Made by a program: the position numbers and the translations under genes. The notes beneath the pieces are model-generated. The model searched no databases, had not been told where the DNA came from, and saw nothing but the letters and a program-made list of their open reading frames with translations. From a virus, in IMG/VR virus record IMGVR_UViG_3300042691_038651, positions 36,843 through 100,842 of that record: a DNA stretch of 64,000 nucleotides. One strand, 5' to 3'. This document shows, in pieces, positions 5,932 through 57,085 of this stretch (position 1 is its first letter; each line of letters begins with the position of its first letter).

Positions 5932-5940
5932 GATATATAG
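5932..5940 (+). promoter_or_regulatory. Class 3 (late) promoter GATATATAG
   Basis: Recurrent motif upstream of virion genes. Confidence 0.7.
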
Positions 5941-36044: not shown

Positions 36045-37914
36045 GAAGATTAACGAGGAATTTAAGAAGATGGAGCAGGGTTTGCCTGCTGATACTTCTG
36101 GATTCTTTGAAGGTAACCCGCAATACAAGGCTGCCAACATTGTATTTGAATATACAAAGGAAGAGCTGGCTGACCTGGCTCGCTGTGCAGATGATGTTGT
36201 ATATTTTGCCAACAAGTTTTGTTACTCAATGACGGATGAAGGGGTACAACAAATTACGCTTCGTCCATATCAGGAAGATATGCTGGAAGGGTTTCAGGAC
36301 AATCGATTTGTAGTGATGCTTGCATCTCGTCAGATTGGTAAAACTGTTACATCCTCAATCTTTATTGCATGGTACCTGTGTTTCCACTTTGATCGTAACG
36401 TTATGATTGTAGCGAACAAAATGGCAACAACTACCGAGATTGTTGACAAGGTAAAAACTATCATCAAAAACTTACCGTTCTTTGTAAAACCAGGCTGTAC
36501 ATCGGCTGGAGCCACTGGTATGAGATTTGATAACGGATGCCGACTCTACTCACAAGCAACTACCAAGACAGCTGCGATTGGATTTACCATTCACTTGTTA
36601 TACGCGGATGAGTTTGCACACATTCACCCTAACTTCTTACAGCAATTCTATCGATCAATCTATCCGACGCTGTCATCATCAAAGATTTCACGGATCATCA
36701 TATCTTCGACGCCAAATGGTATGAACCTGTTTTATGAGCTCTACTCAGGCGCGCTTGAGGGCAAAAACTCATATCACCCAATTAGAGTGGACTGGTGGCA
36801 AGTACCTGGCAGAGATGAAAAATGGAAGGCTCAAGAGATTGCCAACCTTGGATCCGAAGAATTGTTCAACCAGGAATATGGTAACCAATTCTTGGCTTCT
36901 TCTCGTCTTTTACTTCCAGGAACGGTGTTGGAATTTTTGCATCGGGTTTCCAAGAAGTACGTATACAAAGATCACGAAGCATTCTACGCAGATCCCGAGC
37001 TTTTCAAAGATATGACCTGGCATCCAGACTTCGATCCCGCCTCTATTGATAAAGGAGAAAAGTTTGTGATTGCTGTAGACATTGGAGATGGCGTGGGACG
37101 GGACTTTAGTATTCTGAATGTATTCCATCTTGAGCCGCAATCCAGAGCAATGATACGCAAGATCAAGGACTGGCGAGATGAGACCGGTTTCTTCCGACTA
37201 AAGCAGGTTGGACTATTTAGGTCTAATGTGGTATCGGTGGAAGACCTATCAAGAGTTTTAGAGGCTTTAATGTTTGAGGTGTTTGACTCAGAGGACGTAA
37301 AGACTGTGATGGAAATTAACTTCAAAGGAAACCTAGTATTTGAGCGAGTGGGGAGAAACAAAAACTTTTTCCCAGAAACTTTTTTACATACCAAGCATAG
37401 CATGAGCGCACCAGTACTTAAGCCAGGTGTAAAAATGCAAAAGGACAACAAAGAGATTTACTGCAGAGAACTGAGAAATTTGGCGATTGCCAAGAAAGTT
37501 CTTATCACGGAAGAGAGAACTGTAATTGAGTTGGCATCGTTTGGTATCAACTCAGCGGGTAGCTACTCTTCACAGATAGGAAACGATGACGTGGCAATGT
37601 CATGCGTTAACCTGGTAAGTTATTTTGACACAACCGACTTCTACGATATGGTAGAGGATATGTACGATAGCACTGATGAAGCTGTTAAAAATGAGATACA
37701 GGCAGCCATTGAAAAAGGCGGAGGAGCCGAGGAAATGCCGGAAGGATTCCAACTTCTCAAAGACTTGGATCCAATGATGGCCGACAATATCAGAGATATG
37801 CAAAGACAAATTCAAGGAAGCCGAGTACAACTCAGCAAAAGCGGCGGCGGAAGAACTGGTGCCGGTGGCGGAGGAATGTCCGGTGGATTTGGAGGAAGCT
37901 TTGGTAGATTTTGA
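36016..37914 (+). CDS. terL: Terminase large subunit (gp17-like)
   Basis: LRPYQ, SRQIGKT, YADEFAH, SSTPNG, VDIGDG.G.D, NDDV.M. Confidence 0.95.
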   Translation: MAKGKVWTTKKINEEFKKMEQGLPADTSGFFEGNPQYKAANIVFEYTKEELADLARCADDVVYFANKFCYSMTDEGVQQITLRPYQEDMLEGFQDNRFVVMLASRQIGKTVTSSIFIAWYLCFHFDRNVMIVANKMATTTEIVDKVKTIIKNLPFFVKPGCTSAGATGMRFDNGCRLYSQATTKTAAIGFTIHLLYADEFAHIHPNFLQQFYRSIYPTLSSSKISRIIISSTPNGMNLFYELYSGALEGKNSYHPIRVDWWQVPGRDEKWKAQEIANLGSEELFNQEYGNQFLASSRLLLPGTVLEFLHRVSKKYVYKDHEAFYADPELFKDMTWHPDFDPASIDKGEKFVIAVDIGDGVGRDFSILNVFHLEPQSRAMIRKIKDWRDETGFFRLKQVGLFRSNVVSVEDLSRVLEALMFEVFDSEDVKTVMEINFKGNLVFERVGRNKNFFPETFLHTKHSMSAPVLKPGVKMQKDNKEIYCRELRNLAIAKKVLITEERTVIELASFGINSAGSYSSQIGNDDVAMSCVNLVSYFDTTDFYDMVEDMYDSTDEAVKNEIQAAIEKGGGAEEMPEGFQLLKDLDPMMADNIRDMQRQIQGSRVQLSKSGGGRTGAGGGGMSGGFGGSFGRF

Positions 37915-50799: not shown

Positions 50800-51423
50800 A
50801 TGGCTAAAACATCACCGTTACAAGAACTAGGTCTTGCATTTTTTAACAGTCGCTCTGAAGGCGACTTCAACAAGCTGTACTATAGAATGAAGCCCAGCAT
50901 CAACTATTACCTGCGCGACATTTTACCAGCATCCGACGACCGGGAAGAAGCTCTTGCAAATACATTTGCAAAGGTATGGTCAAAAATCCACATGTATGAT
51001 CCGTACTGGAACTTTAGTACATGGATCTACAGAATTGCTCGTAACGAGGCTCTATTAATGCACCGTCACAAACGTCGTAATTACTCATACGAAGGTATGG
51101 AGGAACGCGGCGTTAACATGGAAGCAAAATCACCGGTGGTTATGCCAAGAATCGACTTGGAATCTGTCAATCTTGATGCTGTTGATATGTTGCACGATTT
51201 TGCTGTCGATGAAATCTCGCATCTTCCTGAACTTTATCGTATCGTTATGGAAAAGCGAGAAATTGAAAAGAAGAAGTACGAGGATATATCTACTGAACTT
51301 GGGTGGAAGCAAAATACTGTCCGCACACGTATTCGCAAAGGCCGTGAATTACTTCGAAAAAGCCTAAGCGAGAAGTATCCCGAGCTCGTTAAATCATACA
51401 TTGAACAACAGGAAACTGAATGA
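50800..51423 (+). CDS. ECF (sigma-24-like) RNA polymerase sigma factor
   Basis: F..LY, TF.KVW.KI..YD...FSTWIYRIARN (region 2); LPE.YR, Y.DI...LG...NTVRTRI.KGR (region 4). Confidence 0.92.
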   Translation: MAKTSPLQELGLAFFNSRSEGDFNKLYYRMKPSINYYLRDILPASDDREEALANTFAKVWSKIHMYDPYWNFSTWIYRIARNEALLMHRHKRRNYSYEGMEERGVNMEAKSPVVMPRIDLESVNLDAVDMLHDFAVDEISHLPELYRIVMEKREIEKKKYEDISTELGWKQNTVRTRIRKGRELLRKSLSEKYPELVKSYIEQQETE

Positions 51424-51830
51424 GAAAGCTGTACTACGACATCAAGGCGTTTTTGATACTACGCAAAGAGGTCAAAAAACACAAGGACCAGCCAGACTGG
51501 AAGCGCTATAACTTTCGTCATGATTGGTTGTATCGAATCTATACCGTCATCAATCCAGGTGAAAAGGATCTTGGCGATGACGAGGCGATGCTAAAAATGA
51601 AGACAATGGAAAAGGTAGAAGCCATGAATCGGTATATCTCCACCTTAGGACTTGCTGAGATTGTTTCTCTTTCCCTTGAAAAAATACCAGAAAGCAACTC
51701 ATATCTGGTAGTGTACTATCAAATCTACAATTGGATCACTCCTTGGAGAATACTCAGCAGAAGCATATTTTTGATTGCTGCTATCTGGGCTCTTATTGTA
51801 TATTGGTCCGAAATAATTTCTCTCTTCTGA
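51420..51830 (+). CDS. Protein with C-terminal TM helix
   Basis: Translationally coupled to the sigma gene. Confidence 0.65.
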   Translation: MRKLYYDIKAFLILRKEVKKHKDQPDWKRYNFRHDWLYRIYTVINPGEKDLGDDEAMLKMKTMEKVEAMNRYISTLGLAEIVSLSLEKIPESNSYLVVYYQIYNWITPWRILSRSIFLIAAIWALIVYWSEIISLF

Positions 51831-51856
51831 AAACTTTTTCCAGCACTGGAATATAA
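51829..51856 (+). promoter_or_regulatory. Class 2 promoter
   Basis: GAAAAC-N16-ATATAA. Confidence 0.7.
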
Positions 51857-51878
51857 ACTCTAAATAAAGCACAAAAAA

Positions 51879-52394
51879 ATGGCAAAACAAAAAGAAGCAA
51901 CCCTAAAAGTTGAAAAGACATCTGTCCGCGAAATGTCTGCGGAGGATCGAGCAAAAGAAGTAGCAAAACTTCAAGAAGAAGTGGATGCGCGTAACCGTGA
52001 AATGGAAACAAAACTCTACATTGTAGAAGGTGGTTCTGAAACTGGAGAAAAACTGTTGAAGTTTGTTACAGAAGAAGCACAGTGGAAATTTACCGAAGCT
52101 ATTGGTGTAGTGGAAATGACAAAAGAAATTGAGGATGCTGTTGCTAATGCAAAAGGCGGAAAGCAGTTATTCTTAAGAGTTTTACCGCTTGAAGCTCTAT
52201 GGTTCTTCATTAACAAAGTTGAAGGCGTAGGTCTTGAAAAGGCTAGATACTATGCTGCTAATTTGCTTAAGCCGATTGGCGACGCATTAGCACGCGTAAA
52301 AGCTGACCGCGATGCTATCAATGAATTGATGATGCGTCAAGGTTCTTTGGAAGTAGGCGCAGACTTCGAGGAAGAAGTTAAGTCAGAAAAATAA
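51879..52394 (+). CDS. Hypothetical helical protein
   Basis: 171 aa ORF with A-rich leader. Confidence 0.7.
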   Translation: MAKQKEATLKVEKTSVREMSAEDRAKEVAKLQEEVDARNREMETKLYIVEGGSETGEKLLKFVTEEAQWKFTEAIGVVEMTKEIEDAVANAKGGKQLFLRVLPLEALWFFINKVEGVGLEKARYYAANLLKPIGDALARVKADRDAINELMMRQGSLEVGADFEEEVKSEK

Positions 52395-52404
52395 ACTCAT
52401 AATT

Positions 52405-52695
52405 ATGAACAAGTTCACACAATTCTTGGACAATCACTACCGCAAAATCTTTTTAGGTTTGCTGATTGTCATCTTTGTCAATACTTGTGGCAATCCCAAT
52501 AAGACTACTAATCGTAGGCTTGACAAAGTGGCGGCTGAATTGGATTCTTTGGAATCTGTAGTAGCAACCAAGAAAGATTTGCAGATTGAAGGATTGAAAG
52601 CTGAAAAGCGAATGATCCAGTCTACTGACCGCAAAATGATGGATGTACAGCGTCAGTCTGCTATTGATGAAGAAATCAAGTCGCTCGAAAAGTAG
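52405..52695 (+). CDS. Membrane-anchored coiled-coil protein (possible lipoprotein/spanin)
   Basis: Hydrophobic segment ending VNTCG, then coiled coil. Confidence 0.5.
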   Translation: MNKFTQFLDNHYRKIFLGLLIVIFVNTCGNPNKTTNRRLDKVAAELDSLESVVATKKDLQIEGLKAEKRMIQSTDRKMMDVQRQSAIDEEIKSLEK

Positions 52696-52718: not shown

Positions 52719-52747
52719 AGGAGAGGCTTTAAGCCTCTCCTTTTTTT
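52719..52747 (+). terminator. Intrinsic terminator
   Basis: AGGAGAGGCT-TTA-AGCCTCTCCT plus T run. Confidence 0.9.
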
Positions 52748-52768: not shown

Positions 52769-52777
52769 GATATATAG
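52769..52777 (+). promoter_or_regulatory. Class 3 (late) promoter
   Basis: GATATATAG. Confidence 0.7.
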
Positions 52778-52797: not shown

Positions 52798-53634
52798 ATG
52801 CAAAAGAACAAACTCACCAACGGATTTATCATAGGAACATTCGTGTCTCTCTATGTTGTAGTGAGCCTTATCTCTACAATCCACGTTATCGACTTTTTTA
52901 AGCTCAGTAACCCTGATTGGCTGGCAATATCGCTAGCAATCGCATTTGAAATCGGAGCAGCAGCATCTCTTGCTGCCCTTATCGCTCTAAAGAAAATGAG
53001 CAAATGGATGGTATGGGGTGTATTCATTCTACTAGCAGCAATGCAAATGATGGGTAACACATACTATGCGTTTACACATCTACACGACTTTCAAGGATGG
53101 TCAGAATTATTTGGGCTAAACGAGGAAGAACTTATCTTTCAAAAGAGAGTTCTGTCCATTATTAGTGGTGCAATACTTCCTCTAATCGCGCTAGGATTTA
53201 TCAAATCACTGGTAGACTATATTCGTCCAGCTGAATTGAAAGATGATAACATAATCAAACTTTCTGAAAAGGACGCTGAGGTTTTTGCTGAAGCCATCGC
53301 AAATCCAGCGGAACCCAGTGAAGAGCTGAAAGCCGCTGCAAAAAAAACTTGGAAGAGAGTAGCCGAACTCAAAAAAGAGGGTAAGCTTCCAGAACCAACG
53401 GCCGAGGATATAGCAAATGAACCTACTGCTCTAGCATTTACACCTTACACAGAAGATGAGAATGACACAGATTTAGAAATTGCTTCTCTAATTGATTTGC
53501 AAAAAGCACTCGAGGAAGAGGAGGCAATTGAGCCGGCACAGGAAGCTCCAAAGGAAAAGAAGCCAAGAAAACCGAGAAAGCCAAAAAGTATCGATGATGG
53601 TCTAAACCCACAGATACTTCCCGGCGTAAACTAA
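52798..53634 (+). CDS. Four-TM membrane protein with DUF1778/TacA-like segment in its soluble tail
   Basis: Four hydrophobic helices, then IIKLSEKDAEVFAEAIANPAEPSEELKAAAKK. Confidence 0.65.
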   Translation: MQKNKLTNGFIIGTFVSLYVVVSLISTIHVIDFFKLSNPDWLAISLAIAFEIGAAASLAALIALKKMSKWMVWGVFILLAAMQMMGNTYYAFTHLHDFQGWSELFGLNEEELIFQKRVLSIISGAILPLIALGFIKSLVDYIRPAELKDDNIIKLSEKDAEVFAEAIANPAEPSEELKAAAKKTWKRVAELKKEGKLPEPTAEDIANEPTALAFTPYTEDENDTDLEIASLIDLQKALEEEEAIEPAQEAPKEKKPRKPRKPKSIDDGLNPQILPGVN

Positions 53635-54844: not shown

Positions 54845-55345
54845 ATGGTAATTGGAAAAAAGTTCTGGGAGATTTACGGAGCAGCTAACTACAATCCAGC
54901 GCAAAACGCGAGTGTTCAATTTGGAGGAGTCGCTAACGGAACCAGCATCACTAATGTTGATTCATCAGTAGTGACTGCAATCGCAGCTCTATTAGCAACG
55001 CCGGCAACCGTCGGAATAACAGGAAACTATATTGCAAGTGGAACTCTCATAACTGCTGCCGTAGGTACTACTCTAACGCTGTCGCAGGCAGCAAACGCAA
55101 ACTTGGCAATTACAAACCTGGCATACTGGGATGCGCGTAGACCATCTGCTGCTGGCGGAGATTCACCAATCCAAGCGCTTTTGTGTCTGGACAGCTCACA
55201 CGGGGCTCTCGCTTTCACAGATGCTGCCGGTAAAACCACTACAATACCTGCATCTACTCTAGCAAAAGGTGCAGTCTATTACTTCCAGATTGGAAACGTA
55301 ACCACTGTAACTGCGGGAGATTTTATTGGTTATTCAGCCAACTAA
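54845..55345 (+). CDS. Putative virion decoration protein
   Basis: Ala/Thr-rich; GATAAATAA at 54774. Confidence 0.5.
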   Translation: MVIGKKFWEIYGAANYNPAQNASVQFGGVANGTSITNVDSSVVTAIAALLATPATVGITGNYIASGTLITAAVGTTLTLSQAANANLAITNLAYWDARRPSAAGGDSPIQALLCLDSSHGALAFTDAAGKTTTIPASTLAKGAVYYFQIGNVTTVTAGDFIGYSAN

Positions 55346-55364
55346 AAAAAGCACAAACCTGGCC

Positions 55365-55784
55365 ATGAAAGATCACAAAAAGGCCATCAATAGAGTGCTT
55401 TCATCTATCGACTGGCGAAAGATCAAGTCATACCACGCCAAACTTGGCATAAAGTGGGAGTACGAAATTGATAAGGAAATCGTATACAGGGTTCCCAATA
55501 TCCCTGAACTCAAAAATGAGTTGTCTACTATACTCGAACACATGGTAGAATCCAAGCTCGATTACATATCGCATGGAAGTTGGGTAATCTTTTGGGAAGC
55601 TGATTCTGGAGATATCAGGGTCATCTTTCGCTTGGCTGACTTCTCATTTGAAGATCATTCAGGAAGTAGGGAATCTCTTGAGGAGGCTTTGAAAAAGGCC
55701 GTGGAAAGAGAGGACTATGAGTACGCTGCGGTAATTCGCGACGAGATAAATAATAAGAACAATGCCAATAGCAATATCAAATAG
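55365..55784 (+). CDS. Protein with C-terminal UVR (UvrB/C) motif
   Basis: LEEALKKAVEREDYEYAAVIRDEI. Confidence 0.75.
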   Translation: MKDHKKAINRVLSSIDWRKIKSYHAKLGIKWEYEIDKEIVYRVPNIPELKNELSTILEHMVESKLDYISHGSWVIFWEADSGDIRVIFRLADFSFEDHSGSRESLEEALKKAVEREDYEYAAVIRDEINNKNNANSNIK

Positions 55785-56387: not shown

Positions 56388-56645
56388 ATGCGTACACATT
56401 CTACAAACACCTACTTTGAAACGCAGGGCGAAGCCATCCGCTACATTGAGGAGGCTATTGCTGCTCGAAAATATGAGATGGCTCCGTCGGACAACTTGCG
56501 ATTTGAACACGTTTCATATGAGACTACTGTTCACTATAACATTCCACTTCAAAGGACGGATGGCAAAAACACCAAACGCTGGTTACACATTCAAATGTAC
56601 CGTATGCATTCTGGAAGATACGAAGCAAACTACTACTTATCATAA
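56388..56645 (+). CDS. Hypothetical early protein
   Basis: LHIQMYRM.SGRYE.NYY motif. Confidence 0.7.
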   Translation: MRTHSTNTYFETQGEAIRYIEEAIAARKYEMAPSDNLRFEHVSYETTVHYNIPLQRTDGKNTKRWLHIQMYRMHSGRYEANYYLS

Positions 56646-57085
56646 TGGAAAAGGCTGTCAACATACAATACCGCAAAGCTCGCTACGACTATCACTTCAT
56701 CGAGGAATACATTGCCGGAGCACAGTTAACTGGCAGTGAAGTCAAAAGCATCCGTGACAGCAGAGTTTCTTTAGTAGACAACTTCTGCTATTTTGAAAAA
56801 GGCGAACTCTGGGCCAAGGGAATCAATATCACACCAATTGACCAAAACTATGTTCACGAGCCTCTTCGCCCGCGAAAACTCCTATTACATCGCAAAGAGC
56901 TCAAACGACTGGAAAAGGAACTGGTACAAGGCATTACCATTGTGGTAATAGCAGTCTTTACCACAGCCAAGGGCCGCATCAAATTCAAGATTGCGCTGTG
57001 CCGCGGTAAGAAAGACTACGACAAGCGGGAAACTATTAAGAAGAGAGAGGCCGACCGGGAAATGAAAAATGTTAATAACTTTTAG
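56645..57085 (+). CDS. smpB: SsrA-binding protein
   Basis: RKARYDY, AG..L.GSEVKSIR, HEP.R.RKLLLH, GKK.YDKRE. Confidence 0.95.
   Translation: MEKAVNIQYRKARYDYHFIEEYIAGAQLTGSEVKSIRDSRVSLVDNFCYFEKGELWAKGINITPIDQNYVHEPLRPRKLLLHRKELKRLEKELVQGITIVVIAVFTTAKGRIKFKIALCRGKKDYDKRETIKKREADREMKNVNNF

Follow-up and report, generated by a model that had tools for sequence, protein, structure and literature searches.

A TacA-derived antitoxin module in a four-helix membrane protein of T4-like jumbo phages: a candidate membrane-tethered decoy

Introduction

Toxin-antitoxin (TA) modules of the GNAT/DUF1778 type (TacAT, AtaRT, KacAT) are very common, and their physiological role is disputed. In genuine antitoxins of this group, the C-terminal half wraps the GNAT toxin (TacT, AtaT or KacT type), suffices alone for binding and prevents the toxin from binding acetyl-CoA and dimerising. 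Phages can counter TA systems with antitoxin mimics, such as T4 Dmd, which is directed against RnlA and LsoA. Here, we describe a segment resembling the C-terminal half of TacA inside a predicted four-helix membrane protein, termed P0001, that is encoded on a 64,000-nucleotide stretch of viral DNA. This stretch (hereafter, the window) is the 3' 64 kb (positions 36,843 to 100,842) of the 100,842-bp IMG/VR record IMGVR_UViG_3300042691_038651, the completeness of which was estimated at ~35% by CheckV.

A reference for a residue-level comparison is KacA, in which the neutralising part consists of strand betaB (residues 52-56), helix alphaC (57-70), a PPAP linker (71-74) and helix alphaD (75-86). 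W61, V64, A67 and I68 pack on KacT, and neutralisation is abolished by R77A or by the triple substitution M65A/I68A/Q70A (PMC6698736). Antitoxins of phages have also been described: an orphan phage TacA was annotated in the paper on cyanophage S-CREM1, with a proposed anti-TA role (PMC9964418), and phages are reported to use orphan antitoxins against DarTG, the DarG-like AdfA acting against DarTG1 (PMC11257639). The gene and the module in question are located as follows.

52798..53634, + strand: gene of the 278-residue membrane protein P0001 (open reading frame (ORF) call and homologue family)
53251..53355, + strand: TacA/DUF1778 C-terminal toxin-binding module, residues 152-186, corresponding to KacA betaB, alphaC, an NPxxP linker and alphaD (Pfam, hhalign and structure model)

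Homology of the segment to TacA antitoxins

An earlier note, made from the sequence alone, had drawn attention to a peptide that we located at residues 152-183 (nt 53251-53346, inside its interval 53245-53350). It described the peptide as the C-terminal part of a DUF1778 antitoxin that follows four transmembrane (TM) helices and lacks the N-terminal ribbon-helix-helix (RHH) part, and suggested a comparison using HMMER. All of this was borne out. P0001 matches the Pfam profile TacA1 (PF08681) above its gathering cut-off (E 1.6e-5; 25.2 bits versus a cut-off of 21), with residues 147-183 aligned to positions 41-77 of 80. Profile positions 1-40 are unmatched, and residues 1-146 are instead occupied by the four TM helices, which both an AlphaFold2 (AF2) model and hydropathy confirmed. 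The excised segment alone scored 29.2 bits against the same profile and P0010, a diverged carrier, 26.2 bits (positions 45-80); for comparison, a genuine Bacteroidota TacA reached 102 bits over positions 1-79. Searching the PDB by sequence gave seven matches, individually weak (E 0.1-0.4), and all seven were to the C-terminal parts of DUF1778 antitoxins (AtaR, KacA, 1y9b, 7ak9 and 7zg5).

We searched 401 Bacteroidota genomes, obtained via a 16S probe site, with PF08681. Matches were present in 64 of them, and in most of the loci retrieved a GNAT ORF (~166 aa) follows TacA. The phage segment is much closer to the C-terminal halves of these Bacteroidota antitoxins than to enterobacterial ones. 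Alignment of profiles from 11 phage proteins carrying the segment (the carriers) and 23 Bacteroidota TacAs using hhalign gave a probability of 94.9% (E 4.5e-8, 49% identity over 35 columns) and paired phage residues 152-186 with TacA residues 58-92 of 98. In pairwise BLASTP comparisons, P0001 matched one Bacteroidota TacA at 34.3 bits (E 1e-7) and a canonical metagenomic TacA at 41.2 bits (E 5e-10, 51% identity over 35 residues), while P0010 was 47% identical to a Bacteroidota TacA over 34 residues. The metagenomic antitoxins (canonical, 91-104 aa) were selected by a degenerate DNA pattern for the motif and are uninformative on the donor; the one compared with P0001 belongs to a TA island and has a GNAT gene beside it. 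A hidden Markov model (HMM) built from C-terminal halves of Bacteroidota TacAs only recognised 11 of 11 carriers at 19.6-31.6 bits, with P0001 at 31.6, versus 19.1 bits for the best and 13.1 for the next of 12,580 composition-preserving shuffles of tails or segments. A word-indexed protein search with the segment only, in which shared 5-mers are required, returned the query itself and nothing further.

On these sequence comparisons, homology of the segment with the C-terminal half of TacA/DUF1778 antitoxins is established, and chance or composition as its source is effectively excluded. P0001 itself is not a DUF1778 antitoxin, because it is without an RHH domain and a toxin partner; it contains a DUF1778-derived module.

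Contact residues and a predicted complex with a GNAT toxin

When the segment was aligned with solved antitoxins (PDB sequence alignment), the toxin-packing residues V64, A67 and I68 of KacA fell on F163, A166 and I167 of P0001, the linker prolines P71 and P74 on P170 and P173, and L78 on L177. Ten positions are invariant in the 11 carriers (L155, D159, A160, F163, E165, P170, P173, E175, L177 and A180). Among these, L155, F163, P170 and L177 coincide with L61, F69, P76 and L83 of the Bacteroidota TacAs, which are invariant or near-invariant there. In the AF2 model, residues 157-168 and 175-193 in and around the segment are helical.

Regarding a toxin, the earlier note had seen no candidate gene nearby and had proposed modelling with a TacT of Bacteroidota. 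The first point extends to the entire 100,842-bp record (~35% of the genome), in which no GNAT/TacT-like gene was found and searches with PF13508, PF00583 and a TacT-type profile gave zero matches; the neighbours of P0001 are phage genes. For the second, residues 146-196 (input with the carrier alignment) were co-folded with the GNAT toxin of locus L203 (input with an alignment of 15 relatives), a stand-in taken from Bacteroidota, the presumed host phylum (toxin numbering in the co-fold is offset by one residue). The runs scored 0.58, 0.62 and 0.65 and the best of three controls 0.00, so that at 0.62 versus 0.00 the pair reaches the support mark. Of 80 solved complexes, 58 attained this mark, as did 2 of 110 mismatched pairs; these counts are only a rough guide here, because our own alignments served as input. 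The runs share at least 89% of their contacts, with predicted local distance difference test (pLDDT) values of at least 69 for the partner. The predicted interface comprises residues 151-185: residues 152-155 run along toxin strand 63-73, F163, A166 and I167 occupy a hydrophobic pocket, and further contacts lie near the QGRGLG acetyl-CoA motif of the toxin, an arrangement that mirrors the description of KacA-KacT. The co-fold supports binding of a GNAT toxin by the tail, showing likeness rather than binding by the P0001 copy.

Architecture and topology of the carrier protein

Three further parts of P0001 were delimited.

52798..53235, + strand: four-TM domain, residues 1-146, highly conserved; DUF2637-like by predicted structure only (AF2 model, hydropathy and alignments)
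53350..53436, + strand: family-wide tail motif W.KV.EL+.EGKLP.PT.ED..NEPTALA, residues 185-213, unrelated to TacA (family alignments)
53554..53631, + strand: basic Lys/Arg/Pro-rich stretch and conserved C-terminal NPQ.LPGVN, residues 253-278 (alignments)

The AF2 model (mean pLDDT 61.6) places the TM helices at residues 4-32, 39-63, 69-94 and 112-142, in agreement with hydropathy, and the ratio of nonsynonymous to synonymous differences (pN/pS) in this domain is 0.01-0.07. The N-terminus and the loop after TM2 together bear five Lys/Arg and zero acidic residues, while the TM3-TM4 loop bears five acidic residues and zero Lys/Arg. Because this distribution fits the positive-inside rule, the N- and C-termini, and hence the tail, should be cytoplasmic, in agreement with the membrane tether that had been proposed for the module.

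By predicted structure, the four-TM domain matches clusters of DUF2637 (PF10935), a family of membrane proteins of Actinomycetota, in the ESM Atlas (TM-score 0.72 by query and 0.38-0.40 by target). No PF10935 sequence match was found in P0001, even at E up to 10. Some DUF2637 proteins likewise bear cytoplasmic C-terminal add-ons (HTH_23 or Sigma70_r4); their taxon is a different one. A literature search on the function of DUF2637 yielded nothing useful.

Distribution and evolution of the segment

The P0001 family is large: clustering at 90% leaves 4402 homologues and at 50%, 903 clusters, and in IMG/VR it occupies at least 337 loci on contigs of up to 348 kb. Across the family, the linker that joins TM4 to the W.KV.EL motif is hypervariable and mostly acidic or of a VNDQITD type. 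The TacA-like segment stands at this linker position in 11 of the 120 closest family members, scoring above the gathering cut-off of Pfam TacA1. The carriers form two groups with unrelated downstream tails, and all 11 belong to one 28-member clade of a quick tree (SH-like approximate likelihood ratio test (SH-aLRT) 89), within which the segment may have a single origin. Among 150 cluster representatives, P0001 alone has a Pfam-level TacA1 match.

Diverged copies were also detected in other 50% clusters. The Bacteroidota-only HMM recognised one in P0130, where it lies further along the tail (E 3.8e-6). A second HMM, to which the pattern-selected metagenomic TacAs were added, also matched P0133, P0253 and P0165 (E 3e-7 to 1e-3), which gave E 0.05 or weaker, or no match, with the Bacteroidota-only HMM. 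As a lead only, the ESM Atlas contains three P0001-like viral clusters (388, 346 and 419 aa; 246 members) with TacA1 in 81-96%. The earlier note had described the antitoxin part as grafted into the membrane protein and had asked for a comparison with homologues. The segment proved to be clade-specific, with unrelated linkers at that place in homologues, and 'grafted' is fair wording; a single recent graft would be an incomplete account, as other lineages of the family have the module elsewhere along the tail.

Between the two carrier groups, identity is 45% in the segment and 29% in the remaining tail. For the segment, pN/pS is 0.29-0.38; synonymous sites approach saturation. No TacA1 match was found anywhere in 26 related phage records (five of them at least 90% complete) or in LR756500.1; these relatives are therefore without the module as a separate gene.

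In most family members, the place of the TacA tail (equivalent to window positions 53240-53350) is taken by a strongly conserved, sometimes repeated VNDQITD(S/A)VTQ block, seen in P0014, P0022, P0035, P0093 and many others. A suspected resemblance of this block to R-body RebB proteins gave no Pfam match at E up to 10 and is not claimed.

The module in other proteins

A metagenome scan revealed TacA tails, restricted to Pfam positions 43-80, in several other protein settings. These include an N6/N4 DNA methylase with the tail fused at its N-terminus, as well as tails inside soluble proteins of 573-612 aa and proteins of 265-301 aa, all on metagenome contigs. A second multi-TM family of ~440-500 aa bears a TacA tail after its last TM helix, followed by calcium-binding-like DGDG.IDGYD repeats; its gene always adjoins a UvdE gene, the product of which is 44-48% identical to the UvdE of the window. 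We rejected this family as a homologue of the P0001 family (hhalign probability 1%). The loci are as follows.

L281:743-1678; L236:587-2389; L297:2778-4613; L249:1544-2338; L235:1775-2677: methylase-fused or internal TacA tails
L239:5802-7124; L280:164-1528; L244:5382-6878(-); L248:7722-9086(-): second multi-TM family

A tblastn search with the segment additionally gave a match in Burkholderia phage BcepSaruman (E 0.03), in a stretch that lacks annotation.

Partial TacA1 matches also occur in the Bacteroidota genomes. At G309:C71:8253-8628 and G357:C11:6238-6613, two C-terminal-half matches each lie in tandem, and at G429:C30:6659-6896 an N-terminal-half match lies beside a C-terminal-half match, maybe as a split gene. 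Judging from these sequences, tail-only or split antitoxin genes may exist in bacteria.

Gene setting and source phage

Every long ORF of the window is on the + strand. T4-type genes encode a portal protein, a gp15-like protein, the large terminase and a 1298-aa sheath protein, as well as a clamp loader, topoisomerase II, a UvsX-like RecA, a DnaB-like helicase, a Rad50-like ATPase and a sigma factor of the extracytoplasmic function (ECF) type. The record is a fragment of a T4-like jumbo myovirus, and its host is probably a member of the Bacteroidota. The following elements lie directly upstream of the P0001 gene.

52405..52695, + strand: protein of 96 aa that combines a hydrophobic/Cys signal at its N-terminus with a coiled coil; conserved in position beside the P0001 homologue in related loci
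52719..52741, + strand: strong intrinsic-terminator-like hairpin (10-bp stem and T run) that closes the upstream transcription unit (from the sequence)
52769..52776, + strand: GATATATA, a late-type promoter motif, 22 nt before the ATG of P0001 (motif count)

The motif GATATATA occurs nine times in the window versus 1.5 expected (positions 5932, 18640, 20223, 26083, 33247, 37927, 43851, 48325 and 52769). All nine copies are on the + strand, each 8-36 nt before the start of a + strand ORF, and among the ORFs that follow are the gp15-like and sheath genes as well as other large ones. In class, the motif is a late-type promoter resembling TATAAATA of T4. We place the P0001 gene in the putative late class because it shares this motif with virion and other large genes.

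Gene order around P0001 is well conserved. The 96-aa gene lies directly upstream of the membrane-protein gene in 66 of 80 related loci, and the order sigma factor, 136-aa protein, 171-aa protein, 96-aa protein, membrane protein is kept in 51-72 of 80. In the window, the conserved upstream block spans 50800-52695 (+) and comprises the ECF-type sigma factor, the 136-aa protein with a C-terminal TM helix, the 171-aa protein and the 96-aa protein. The last two small membrane proteins of this block appear spanin-like, and no endolysin was found nearby.

Two downstream genes deserve mention. An SmpB homologue (tmRNA partner, stalled-ribosome rescue; Pfam SmpB, 155 bits) is encoded at 56645-57085 (+), and ARAGORN detected no tmRNA gene in the window; the phage SmpB may be relevant because GNAT toxins stall translation. 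The 152-aa product of 55326-55784 (+) has a UvrB/UvrC 'UVR' motif at its C-terminal end (Pfam UVR, 30.5 bits) and is conserved downstream of the membrane protein in several related loci.

Discussion

We favour a function of P0001 as a stable, membrane-tethered decoy antitoxin against a host GNAT toxin, to which we assign a probability of roughly 0.5. The earlier note had suggested such a mimic, one that leaves the host operon unrepressed; the computational checks that it named all agreed with it and partly support its interpretation. P0001 would be a core late inner-membrane protein of a freshwater clade of T4-like jumbo phages, probably infecting Bacteroidota. In its subclade, the hypervariable, probably cytoplasmic linker after TM4 has been replaced by a TacA-derived strand-helix-NPxxP-helix module. 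Following host shut-off, the labile host TacA would decay and the freed toxin would be captured at the membrane, such that aminoacyl-tRNAs stay unacetylated during late protein synthesis of the phage. Protection of heavy late translation would be a plausible reason for late expression. Because it has no RHH domain, such a decoy could not repress the host tacAT operon. Consistent with this function, pairs of TacA and GNAT genes occur frequently in the presumed host phylum, as judged by the PF08681 matches in 64 of 401 sampled genomes, and the segment persists across two carrier groups despite their unrelated downstream tails.

Several observations weigh against a decoy. The segment is dispensable, because 17 of the 28 members of the carrier clade are without it or have a damaged copy (one is partly deleted). 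Since the 26 related phage records are free of TacA1, the supposed toxin threat would not be general for the phage group. Constraint on the segment is only moderate: compared to the closest DNA relative (L300), its pN/pS does not fall below the value for the other tail residues. The gene shares its late promoter class with virion genes, while known antitoxin mimics such as T4 Dmd are expressed early. The toxin used for co-folding was a stand-in from a Bacteroidota genome, and the result may reflect memory of the solved AtaRT, KacAT and TacAT complexes. The literature searched yielded no paper in which GNAT/DUF1778 modules were shown to protect against phages. A weak further point is that no basic residue occupies the position of Arg77, which is essential in KacA and clashes there with acetyl-CoA: P0001 has Glu176 at this place, and other carriers have Glu, Thr, Ala or Asn. 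Those Bacteroidota TacAs that have an NPPEP linker, 19 of the 23 aligned, are also without a basic residue at this position and read PNEAL or PNDAL; we dropped the Arg77 objection because the residue is thus a trait of the KacA/AtaR subgroup.

Part of the same evidence could be accommodated by a near-neutral recombination scar, that is, a TacA-derived fragment that entered a tolerant linker with fast turnover and drifts there uselessly. The hypervariability of the linker across the family, the solitary Pfam-level match among the 150 representatives, the loss, replacement and partial deletion inside the carrier clade and the tail-like pN/pS versus L300 would all be expected of such a scar. Drift is harder to reconcile with ten invariant positions among carriers of 63-92% overall identity, four of which are positions conserved in TacA, and with the retained equivalents of KacA contacts at F163, A166 and I167. 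The higher identity of the segment than of the remaining tail between carrier groups, a pN/pS below 1, the recurrence of the module at further positions within the family as well as in unrelated proteins and the co-fold also speak against drift, and we regard a scar as unlikely. That the match arose by chance or convergence, from an amphipathic helix-turn-helix, rich in Ala, Glu and Lys, with a fortuitous fit to the DUF1778 profile, is close to refuted: the shortness of the segment (~35 residues), its place in a compositionally biased tail and the weakness of single PDB matches are outweighed by the Pfam score above the gathering cut-off, the hhalign (E 4.5e-8) and BLASTP (E 5e-10) matches to TacAs, the gap between P0001 and the shuffles (31.6 versus at most 19.1 bits) and the confinement of all seven PDB matches to one family.

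The module might also bind a GNAT-fold or other partner in the service of the carrier's own job instead of counter-defence. It might, for example, sense or recruit an acetyltransferase of host or phage at the membrane, which could time lysis or assembly. P0001 and its family have holin-like traits in the late promoter motif, the four TM helices and the charged, basic C-terminal tail, yet the protein is 278 aa long, and no endolysin was identified among the neighbours of its gene. The gene is a core, syntenic one beside a small signal/coiled-coil protein, the presence of the module in the tail of an unrelated multi-TM family hints that membrane tethering itself matters, and a phage GNAT is conceivable given that the record spans ~35% of the genome. 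Set against this are the lack of any GNAT in the 100.8-kb record, the fact that most family members work without the module and its occurrence in stand-alone small genes, soluble proteins and a DNA methylase, which fits a self-contained decoy better. We consider a role in the carrier's own job unlikely.

A broader variant, to which we give a rather low probability, is that the cytoplasmic tail of the family serves to display short decoy peptides in modular fashion, of which the TacA tail would be one cassette. If so, motifs of other clades, such as VNDQITD(S/A)VTQ, would be further cassettes, and the unrelated multi-TM family would follow the same principle. Membrane-anchored 'sponges' that hold host defence effectors at the inner membrane would then be a general phage strategy and GNAT/TacT modules true anti-phage systems.

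Returning to the decoy antitoxin, repeated retention by phages of the toxin-gripping half alone provides indirect evidence that GNAT toxins threaten phage replication, and a defined peptide of ~35-50 residues offers an experimental handle on whether these toxins act against phages. The tether would imply sequestration at the membrane instead of simple soluble titration. If the decoy works, it could furthermore serve as a marker linking uncultured jumbo phages to hosts with the corresponding toxin.

Comparison with known systems

With TacA, AtaR and KacA, P0001 shares the C-terminal neutralising half, the hydrophobic contact positions and a predicted interface with a GNAT toxin. These antitoxins possess an RHH domain for DNA binding and dimerisation, in place of which P0001 has four TM helices, and their genes adjoin a toxin gene in an autoregulated operon, neither of which applies to the P0001 gene. 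The module is instead embedded in a 278-aa phage membrane protein, with 90 more residues after it, behind a late-type phage promoter.

Among phage proteins, the TacA of S-CREM1 resembles P0001 in comprising the toxin-binding half only, in belonging to a lytic phage without a toxin gene and in its proposed decoy-type role. With Dmd and AdfA, the shared logic would be that a phage-supplied substitute for the labile antitoxin of the host keeps freed toxin from aborting infection. Both are soluble, experimentally shown and directed against toxins of another family and fold, while P0001 is known from sequence and model. As in the class of antitoxin mimics, P0001 combines an antitoxin-like part with the lack of a toxin in a lytic phage. 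Orphan TacA tails of phages are free soluble peptides or small proteins, in contrast to the module of P0001, which is fused in-frame, predicted to be membrane-tethered and probably expressed late. The new element is this in-frame fusion of a TacA tail to a core membrane protein.

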